From contig CP169074.1 in NCBI GenBank assembly GCA_041891055.1, positions 1,152,001 through 1,216,000 on the forward strand: 64,000 nt of DNA, read 5' to 3'. Position 1 is the stretch's first letter; each line of letters opens with the position of its first letter. The notes below the pieces were generated by a model, which was not told where the DNA came from, made no database searches, and was given only the letters and a program-made list of their open reading frames with translations. The stretch is from Halorutilales archaeon Cl-col2-1 (GTDB lineage Archaea > Halobacteriota > Halobacteria > Halobacteriales > Afararchaeaceae). Positions 52,353 to 53,783 of this stretch are shown piece after piece. The position numbers and the translations under genes are program-made.

Positions 52353-53783
52353 ATGGGACTTCTAGACAGATTCAGGTCTGACGAGGATCAGAGTCAGAAG
52401 GTCGCTTTCATAGGAATAGACGGTGTGCCGAAGTCTCTCCTCACGGATCTCATCGAAGACGGCAGGCTCCCCAACATAGAACGTATCTCGGGCGGCGATA
52501 TCGATAGCATGAACGCAGTCGTTCCCCCAGAGTCAAGCGCGTGCTGGCCTGCGATGACGACGGGTACGAACCCCGGGAAGACGGGGGTTCTCGGCTTTCA
52601 GGAACGTGAGAGAGGCTCCTACGACACCTATATACCCCTTGGAAAACACGTCAAGTCGAAACGCGTCTGGGACGTAGTCGGGGACTCGGGAAGGAGAAGC
52701 GTCGTCTCGAACGTTCCCGTGACATTCCCGCCCGAGGAGATAGACGGTACTATGGTGTCGGGCTTCCTCACGCCCGAGATAGAGTCGGTATCGAACGACC
52801 CCGAGGTCGTCGAGTACCTCAAGTCGATAGACTACCGCGTAGACGTCGACGCCAGCTTAGGACACGACGACAAGGAGGAGTTCATACGTAACGCGAGGGA
52901 GACACTCGACGCACGTGCCGAGGCTCTCTACCATTTCATAGAGAACGAGGACTGGTCGCTCCTCTGGCACGTCTTCATGGCGACCGACAGGGTCAACCAT
53001 TTCCTCTGGGAGAACTACGAGGAGGGTGACCAACTCGGCGACGAGTTCGTGGAGTTCTACGAGAGAGTCGATGAGATCATAGGCGAGATCCGTGAGAGGC
53101 TCGACGACGACACGTCGATGATAGTCGCCGCCGACCACGGCTTCTGCCGACTCGAACACGAGATAGACATGAACGCGTGGCTACGTGACGAGGGATGGCA
53201 GTCACTCGACGTCGAAGCCGAGGAGGGTGACTGCGAAGTCGAGACGAGCCTCGAAAACATCACCGACGACACGAAGGCATACAGCCTGATACCCGGACGT
53301 TTCTACATAAACCTCGAAGGACGCGAGCCACGAGGAAGCGTCTCAGAAGACGACTACGACGAGGTGCGCGACCAACTCGTCGGGATGCTCGAAGACCTCG
53401 AAGACCCCGATGGCAACGAGGTTATGGAGGAAGTCTATGTCCGCGAGGAGGTCTATGAAGGCGACGAGTTCGGTATAACACCCGATGTCGTCTGTGTCCC
53501 CAACCGAGGATACGACCTCAAGGCGTCTTTCGGTCCTGACAAGCCCGTCTACAAGAAGGGCGAGAGGAACGGAATGCACACATTCGACGACGCTACTCTG
53601 ATAGTCGATATTCGCGAATCTGAGGATTCGCGTGCACACGAGAACGAAAGTTCTCGGGATACCGGCGACGAAGTCGAGATAGACGCCGACGACGCCTCGA
53701 TTATCGATGTGGCTCCGACTGTCCTCGACCTGATGGATATAGACGCGCCCGATGAGATCGACGGCGAGAGTCTGGTTAAGTAA
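52353..53783 (+). CDS. Alkaline phosphatase superfamily (nucleotide pyrophosphatase/phosphodiesterase) protein with a 17-aa insertion
   Basis: IGIDG, WPAMTTGTNPG, DRVNH, ADHGF, GMH, DVAPTVL. Confidence 0.92.
   Translation: MGLLDRFRSDEDQSQKVAFIGIDGVPKSLLTDLIEDGRLPNIERISGGDIDSMNAVVPPESSACWPAMTTGTNPGKTGVLGFQERERGSYDTYIPLGKHVKSKRVWDVVGDSGRRSVVSNVPVTFPPEEIDGTMVSGFLTPEIESVSNDPEVVEYLKSIDYRVDVDASLGHDDKEEFIRNARETLDARAEALYHFIENEDWSLLWHVFMATDRVNHFLWENYEEGDQLGDEFVEFYERVDEIIGEIRERLDDDTSMIVAADHGFCRLEHEIDMNAWLRDEGWQSLDVEAEEGDCEVETSLENITDDTKAYSLIPGRFYINLEGREPRGSVSEDDYDEVRDQLVGMLEDLEDPDGNEVMEEVYVREEVYEGDEFGITPDVVCVPNRGYDLKASFGPDKPVYKKGERNGMHTFDDATLIVDIRESEDSRAHENESSRDTGDEVEIDADDASIIDVAPTVLDLMDIDAPDEIDGESLVK
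53611..53659 (-). repeat. Double-hairpin micro-element C (49 bp), in frame inside a CDS
   Basis: TA-[unit]-TA; reverse complement closely resembles unit B2. Confidence 0.85.

Follow-up and report, generated by a model that had tools for sequence, protein, structure and literature searches.

A double-hairpin unit inserted in frame in a haloarchaeal NPP-like gene, probably one copy of a class-wide family of mini-elements

We describe here a short double-hairpin insertion in an enzyme gene of the Halorutilales archaeon Cl-col2-1. The window, as we use the word, is the whole stretch of 64,000 nt that was analysed. The insertion is a presence/absence polymorphism and is absent from close relatives at this site. 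We consider it likely, with a probability of roughly 0.7, that it is one copy of a double-hairpin repeat that occurs throughout the haloarchaeal class and is likely selfish, and that it is neutral in the gene, which encodes an NPP-like protein. Palindromic insertions that keep the reading frame have been described in Rickettsia and a few other lineages, mostly as fossils. The family described here is polymorphic between congeners and within natural populations, and it is found in essential genes. Since it has these properties and is matched in 109 of 150 genomes of a class with genetically tractable species, the mechanism of insertion and the cost of the added peptide can be tested directly. 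Taken alone, the insertion is probably neutral; its value is that of a clear-cut example.

Results

The host protein matches Pfam PF01663 (E 7.5e-42), and the top Foldseek matches of its model are 3szy and 7n1s (E about 1e-12). A PDB sequence search with the single protein gave no match, and a PDB search with the host profile gave weak matches to NPP7 and iPGM. Among the orthologues D23, S61, S62, D212, H216, D261 and H262 are invariant and H409 is nearly so. The dN/dS of the gene against the congener G001 is 0.083. With the PF01663 domain, the fold and the metal ligands all present, the protein is predicted to be an NPP-like member of the alkaline-phosphatase superfamily. The AlphaFold model has a mean pLDDT of 79.9. 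The insert follows directly after the strand formed by residues 414-419, and residues 430-439, ahead of the helix 450-460, have pLDDT values below 50. Mapping of the insert on a structure model had been proposed in a preliminary description of the sequence; it lies in this low-confidence loop, and the model suggests a flexible surface loop.

The insertion consists of TA, a 49-nt core and a second TA (Table 1). The codons from 53610 encode IRESEDSRAHENESSRD, the predicted residues 420-436 of the 476-aa ORF, and 6 of these 17 residues are D/E, 3 are R and 4 are S. The initial claim that a 49-bp unit plus 2 nt adds 51 nt in frame is borne out by the coordinates and by a gap of 51 nt in G001. NCBIfam gave no match for the inserted peptide, and Rfam none within window 53400-56800 at E up to 1. 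Folding with DNA parameters predicts two hairpins on each strand (-17.1 and -15.8 kcal/mol). The copy matches the covariance model with an E value of 4.5e-15, being itself part of the training set. Two other loci of the window, 56166-56265 and 9006-9056, can be aligned with the insert; we take them to be the repeat "B2" to which it had been aligned before. In an X4 metagenome contig (depth 2.9) the loose end behind 53636 is, on weak evidence, another hairpin.

Table 1. Features of the host gene, the inserted unit and its sister copies (window positions)
Feature	Position	Strand	Evidence and remarks
Host gene, 476 aa, intact; predicted alkaline-phosphatase superfamily (NPP / phosphonoacetate-hydrolase-like fold)	52353..53783	+	PF01663, Foldseek, invariant residues, dN/dS
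Left junction dinucleotide	53609..53610	+	TA here; CA in the filled X1 and X4 alleles; family norm CG
49-nt element core	53611..53659	+	with one dinucleotide copy, 51 nt added (residues 420-436); 51-nt gap against G001; covariance model match C1:1205609-1205661
Hairpin 1	53613..53632	+	perfect 8-bp stem, 4-nt loop; usual loop 3 nt
Linker between hairpins	53633..53636	+	conserved WGC; one X4 contig apparently has a second unit nested here
Hairpin 2	53637..53658	+	9-bp stem, A.G mismatch near the foot, 4-nt loop
Right junction dinucleotide	53660..53661	+	TA; TA in X1 too
Two tandem 49-nt sister units with CG junctions, in a putative IS200/IS605-type end palindrome	56166..56265	-	covariance model, alignment
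Another 49-nt sister unit, lying just past a TnpB-like ORF	9006..9056	-	covariance model, alignment

Orthologues were searched over 61 genomes and the 30 best loci were aligned. In G001 there is a single gap exactly at the insert, 228 of the 235 ungapped surrounding bases are identical, and the protein has 459 aa. The 17-residue segment is also absent from 28 of 28 other loci that cover the C-terminus (of 29; L005 is cut short). This is the clean 17-aa gap that had been expected, and a homologous 17-aa segment encoded by non-palindromic DNA, named beforehand as the observation that would speak against an insertion, was found in none of the 28 loci. Metagenome contigs of the runs X2, X3 and X5 skip the element and represent empty alleles. 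The X1 contig spans it without gaps, in a population about 2% divergent in which the filled allele persists, and the X4 contig covers the left junction only. With no such homologous segment in the orthologues the insert is real, and the X1 and X4 contigs speak against an assembly artefact. Assemblers can be misled by hairpins, yet an artefact, or a local replication slip by tandem duplication or template switch, is extremely improbable: the independent X1 contig has the insert, and the insert is unrelated to its flanks while 46 of its 49 nt are those of a distant sister copy at C1:1615308. Together with the orthologue gap, we regard these readings as refuted.

Junctions are CG/CG in 88 of 107 family units. 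A direct repeat of 2 nt, mostly CG, is usual, and it is compatible with a duplication or with a shared core. One array has CT at all three junctions, so that the dinucleotide can follow the target on both sides, and units in tandem arrays are joined by a shared ACG/TTC junction. In the NPP-like gene the empty alleles (G001 and the X2, X3 and X5 contigs) have C at the first base, which gives CA as target. In the filled X1 allele (depth 6) the left junction is CA and the right one TA, and X4 agrees with C at 53609 (depth 2.9). Because CA is present in the empty and in the filled X1 and X4 alleles, the TA/TA of the window probably results from synonymous C-to-T changes after insertion at CA, and the ancestral target, as judged from the allele sequences, was probably CA, not TA. 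The preliminary description had proposed a TA duplication; TA/TA is correct for the present sequence, but the family norm is CG and a TA specificity is not seen. Folding at empty host-gene targets has a mean of -6.0 (11 sites) and is no better than at random CG sites (-5.6). At empty non-CDS targets it is -8.6 (59 sites, neighbouring units included), which is stronger than at random CG.

A structure-only scan of the genome to which the window belongs (G000, 2.06 Mb) found 138 double-hairpin clusters, versus 5 in a 500-kb order-3 Markov control. Family motifs are present in 113 of the clusters (about 113 loci), with units of about 43-57 nt. The covariance model gave 136 matches among 150 candidates scored in G000, partial and both-strand matches included, and the 109 positive genomes of the class were found with 39 candidates scored per genome. 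With an exact-pattern search the family was found in Halorutilus salinus, in Halapricum hydrolyticum and in a number of Halobacteriales MAGs. These named genomes, together with the acidic proteins of the organism and the hypersaline origin of the metagenome runs, mark the host as a haloarchaeon. Bacterial pattern matches (four Vibrio, six others) lack the hairpins and were rejected as chance. Across 45 aligned copies, both partners have changed in 13 of the 17 pairs, and none of 500 shuffles scored as high, although the structure was drawn from the same sequences and the controls therefore lean in its favour. Helix 1 is paired in 99.2% of cases over the 45 copies, 5 of its 8 pairs change on both sides, and no one-sided or G-U-type change is seen. 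For helix 2 pairing is 81.9%, and 8 of 9 pairs change on both sides. The lack of one-sided changes in helix 1 suggests that the hairpins act as DNA and not as RNA. In the family consensus the unit ends in GACG (CGTC on the other strand), and the copy in the NPP-like gene has TATC. The indels that are polymorphic each comprise a pair of hairpins and measure 43-57 nt. Both tandem and nested units occur, and arrays reach up to 9 hairpins. The palindrome that holds the units at 56166-56265 recurs beside a 410-aa TnpB-like gene at C1:682.5 kb.

Several further observations were made on these and other repeats. The loops in alignment A2 form reverse-complement pairs (TTC/GAA, TCT/AGA, TCC/GGA, TTT/AAA), which suggests frequent inversion of whole hairpins. 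Window 56141-56277 together with 56330-56700 resembles a transposase-free IS605-end or PATE-like remnant with two tandem units. A near-identical copy of the remnant lies at G000 C1:35.5-36.0 kb, and a double hairpin at about window 56596-56641 recurs at 750.9 and 1000.8 kb. Polymorphic hairpin elements of 113 nt with inverted ends, each with a nested unit, sit at gene starts or stops (G000 C1:100.9 kb, G001 L052:14673) and are candidate SMR-A-like elements. A separate family of MITE-like, polymorphic elements (about 129-132 nt, inverted ends) is seen at G001 L134:5004, L077:11357, L095:11744 and L123:1117; one copy holds a nested double hairpin. By eye, units adjoin tRNA-like 3'-end sequence at L185, L186, L203, L207 and G001 L167:996, and a 145-nt polymorphic insert terminates in a tRNA-like 3'-end repeat. 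In G144, a composite of about 155 nt that has a unit close to either end is repeated at C1:1026429-1026583, 1314634-1314788, 1400710-1400864 and 2877342-2877496; going by coordinates alone, some of these are in inverted orientation, REPIN-like. Units are often found at or just after tnpB 3' ends (window 9006-9160, L260, L261, L263, L264). The TnpB guide-RNA scaffold would lie at the tnpB 3' end, and such units may alter it. The window also holds a 140-nt direct repeat (3873-4012 and 4344-4483, 96% identical, 471 nt apart).

The comparison of G000 and G001 covered about 1.85 Mb of G001. All polymorphic insertions in host genes have lengths divisible by three (3n): 51 nt in the NPP-like gene and in the PolB intein, 99 nt in an integrase, 48 nt in BioF, 16 aa in an M24 peptidase, 45 nt in GltB, 54 nt in DUF3209, 51 nt in a beta-CASP gene and a nested 48 nt in Hel308, where the array of G001 has one more 48-nt unit. 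Older copies, common to G000 and G001 and each absent from 4 of 4 outgroup orthologues, lie in SAM synthetase (18 aa), ThiN (16 aa) and a 206-aa protein. The 54-nt unit of SAM synthetase (G000 C1:44167-44222) is in frame and is decaying in G001. The nested in-frame array of Hel308 has 3 hairpins in G000 (C1:1726797-1726871) and 5 in G001 (L048:762-883), and Hel308 is here roughly 35-55 residues longer than in outgroups. In the PolB intein an in-frame unit of another subfamily (G000 C1:645159-645209) forms a mobile element within a mobile element. A 691-aa protein, which from its N-terminal motif we take to resemble methionyl-tRNA synthetase, has a 48-nt in-frame unit (G000 C1:1752323-1752372; G001 L089:2019-2064).

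Measured with the descriptor, 3n lengths are found in 10 of 10 in-gene copies of G000 versus 16 of 48 others (Fisher p 1e-4), and in 5 of 5 versus 8 of 44 in G001. About five of the non-CDS end calls in this count were visibly wrong, and lengths were therefore recounted on covariance model coordinates, with 90 of the 136 matches after removal of opposite-strand duplicates, partial and weak matches. Here, 14 of 14 in-gene copies have 3n lengths versus 32 of 76 outside genes, which is the enrichment for which a survey of copy lengths had been suggested. In genes 48 nt occurs nine times, 51 nt four times and 54 nt once. Outside genes 49 nt is commonest (38 of 76), as the preliminary description had it for the common form; its view that 51 nt is the one variant that a gene tolerates does not hold, as 48 nt is commonest in genes. 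The length test is partly circular through gene calling, and for this reason a homology test asked whether copies outside called genes split proteins. Of 198 non-CDS clusters only 5 split a protein, in each case one that is TnpB-like by length and N-terminus, and the control sensitivity was 21 of 24; no interrupted housekeeping gene was found among the 198. A codon-score test for disrupted genes gave 0 of 73, but it detected only 5 of 15 positive controls and was discarded for the homology test.

Copies that are not 3n or that bear stops are present in transposase pseudogenes. The single-unit host-gene matches of the covariance model in G000 all have the same strand and phase (8 of 8), with 66% of genic CG already in that phase; the copies in the beta-CASP and integrase genes lie in different frames. 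On visual inspection, five of the best 28 loci of other genomes (L265, L271, L272, L273 and L278) appear to keep the frame of long acidic ORFs. Neither copies in paralogous tnpB genes nor those common to G000 and G001 count as independent events. We propose that insertion would occur at any length and that purifying selection would keep only 3n, stop-free copies in host genes. The retained copies, nearly always in one strand and phase, would then give a hydrophilic peptide of the type D-V-R-x-S-x-x-S...D, which would suit acidic surface loops. The orthologue gap, the 3n in-gene copies and the 0 of 198 housekeeping interruptions support the earlier proposal that the element creates new protein sequence, as Rickettsia palindromic elements (RPEs) do, and is more than part of an IS end.

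Discussion

The added 17-residue loop would likely be harmless or neutral, tolerated rather than useful. A loop kept for its use, be it that the acidic, serine-rich peptide aids solubility at high salt or that hairpins in the mRNA tune translation or decay, seems improbable to us. The persistence of the filled allele in the X1 population, the older SAM synthetase and ThiN copies kept in both species and the peptide composition would fit such a role. However, empty alleles coexist in close relatives, the target genes are unrelated to one another, stem-breaking changes accumulate in the older copies, and the strict Watson-Crick covariation points to selection at the DNA level for mobility. How a selfish, neutral unit would be moved is the weakest step of our explanation. 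It would move as a single-stranded DNA hairpin, a substrate of an enzyme borrowed in trans. The best candidate that we can name for this enzyme, and only tentatively, is an IS200/IS605-type HUH (Y1) TnpA. In its favour, the zones within 500 nt of tnpB-like sequence make up 3.2% of the genome and hold 36 of the 113 clusters, the end palindrome of the genome's one tnpA/tnpB element is occupied by an array, and helix 1 is free of G-U-type changes. According to the available text of PMC8266576, TnpA-REP acts on single-stranded DNA hairpins and cuts inside CT/CA dinucleotides. Co-occurrence of element and Y1_Tnp over 150 genomes (assumed to be the same in both counts) was not significant (78/31/24/17, p 0.17). 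Against Y1, 31 of the 109 element-positive genomes are without a Y1 match, one of them with 19 element matches, and a full-length strong element match is found at only 2 of 30 tnpA loci, with weak ones at 3 more. Moreover, the dinucleotide can follow the target (CT in the array, CA/TA here), a pattern more readily explained by a true 2-bp duplication than by HUH strand transfer. G000 has a single TnpA (C1:979.0-979.4 kb), which is of the IS200 type (159.5 bits with the IS200 model; 26.1 with the RAYT model against a cut-off of 80), and its gene is divergent from tnpB. The strand bias by replichore gave 15 runs in 38 loci (p 0.08).

The same selfish element might instead depend for its movement on a universal host enzyme with a 2-nt staggered cut, with IS605 ends being merely favoured, harmless hairpin targets. 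A tyrosine recombinase that treats the folded single strands in the manner of an integron comes into question, as does a nuclease or recombinase so far unrecognised; taken jointly we see in them a conceivable solution that falls short of an even chance. The 31 genomes with the element and without Y1_Tnp, the tandem arrays with their shared ACG/TTC junction, the dinucleotide that follows the target and 11 tyrosine-integrase matches in G000 speak for such an enzyme, and the text available of the respective reports states that CGTC REPs are without a dedicated transposase (PMC3733652) and calls the mobilisation of SMRs enigmatic (PMC3119063). On the other side, the enrichment at IS605 ends is strong, no gene flanked by dedicated arrays was seen by eye in G000, and no positive link to any host enzyme was found. 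Matches to IS110 (PF02371) or serine resolvase (PF00239) are absent from G000, a genome 99.5% complete, and a scan of it for HxH motifs gave two proteins, neither of them transposase-like. Movement as a MITE-like element by a DDE transposase of the IS4/IS5 type with 2-bp target duplications is in our view unlikely. The 2-nt direct repeats follow the target, and G000 has 9 DDE_Tnp_1 matches, but inverted symmetry at the ends extends over only about 2-4 nt, much less than in typical terminal inverted repeats (TIRs). Conservation lies in internal stems of free sequence, and the CG junction, not TA, argues against an IS630/mariner type.

The mobiliser has stayed unidentified for CGTC-REPs, RPEs and the SMRs of Haloquadratum. 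We can speculate, as a doubtful extension of the selfish-repeat reading, that the family represents an undescribed class of minimal active mobile DNA: units of about 48 nt, defined by two hairpins and not by sequence, that would be moved without an IS-encoded transposase via a universal haloarchaeal enzyme with new strand-transfer chemistry, and that would seed a recurrent acidic peptide into essential proteins across Halobacteria. If true, this class would be among the smallest mobile DNAs, and it would explain the spread of the transposase-less CGTC-REPs, RPEs and SMRs.

Comparison with known systems

The comparisons that follow are limited to the accessible text of the cited sources. In the open literature covered no description of the family was found, and the name "HARP/THARP" led to nothing relevant. 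The family is thus apparently an undescribed haloarchaeal mini-element. An origin as PATE or IS200/IS605 end seems improbable, as IS ends are themselves interrupted by units and solitary units are present in host genes. An IS630/mariner-type MITE was rejected in view of the CG/CG norm and the CA target.

RPEs (Ogata et al. 2000, as reviewed in PMC2229807 and PMC3184786) are described there as Rickettsia stem-loops of 105-146 bp, in frame or intergenic and presumed neutral. Like them, the unit is a palindromic non-coding repeat, found in frame in conserved protein genes and between genes, presumed neutral and with its mobiliser unidentified. Unlike their single stem-loop with terminal inverted repeats, it has a 49-nt core with two separate short hairpins, it nests and stacks in tandem, it is polymorphic between congeners and it spans an archaeal class. 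In-frame fusion of palindromic repeats into archaeal protein genes was described by Suyama et al. 2005 (via the text of PMC2229807). The M. jannaschii repeats, presumably those named MJRE, belong to another lineage and were compared by description alone.

CGTC-tagged REPs (Di Nocera et al. 2013, PMC3733652) are reported, in the text at hand, from five bacterial phyla as single stem-loops of 20-40 bp and as dimers, with clusters being rare. They share with the haloarchaeal family a strand that starts with CGTC followed by a stem of 8-9 bp, intragenic copies and the lack of a dedicated transposase. Here, however, the moving unit is an asymmetric pair of hairpins, arrays are common, and the copy in the NPP-like gene has TA for CG. 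Likewise, REPs and REPINs with a RAYT, as far as PMC8266576 was available, have short hairpins of the single-stranded DNA type, a conserved tag and a junction dinucleotide; the haloarchaeal family differs in having no GTAG tag, no RAYT over the cut-off in G000 and CG, not CT/CA, at the junction.

The SMR-A and SMR-B elements of Haloquadratum walsbyi (Dyall-Smith et al. 2011) include SMR-A with about 110 bp and HqIRS41 with 80 bp. SMR-A has conspicuous terminal inverted repeats and does not duplicate its target, and in-frame gene insertions go unmentioned in the available portion of the report (PMC3119063). Both SMR-A and the units are haloarchaeal, transposase-free and recently mobile, and both enter near-terminal palindromes of IS605-type elements or PATEs. 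Compared by description and not by sequence, the units differ in their size of 43-57 nt and the lack of TIRs; their usual 2-nt direct repeat may be a target duplication or a shared core. By analogy, the element appears to work like RPEs and CGTC-REPs and to choose its targets like SMR-A, while in size and architecture it departs from all of them, and we therefore file it under none.
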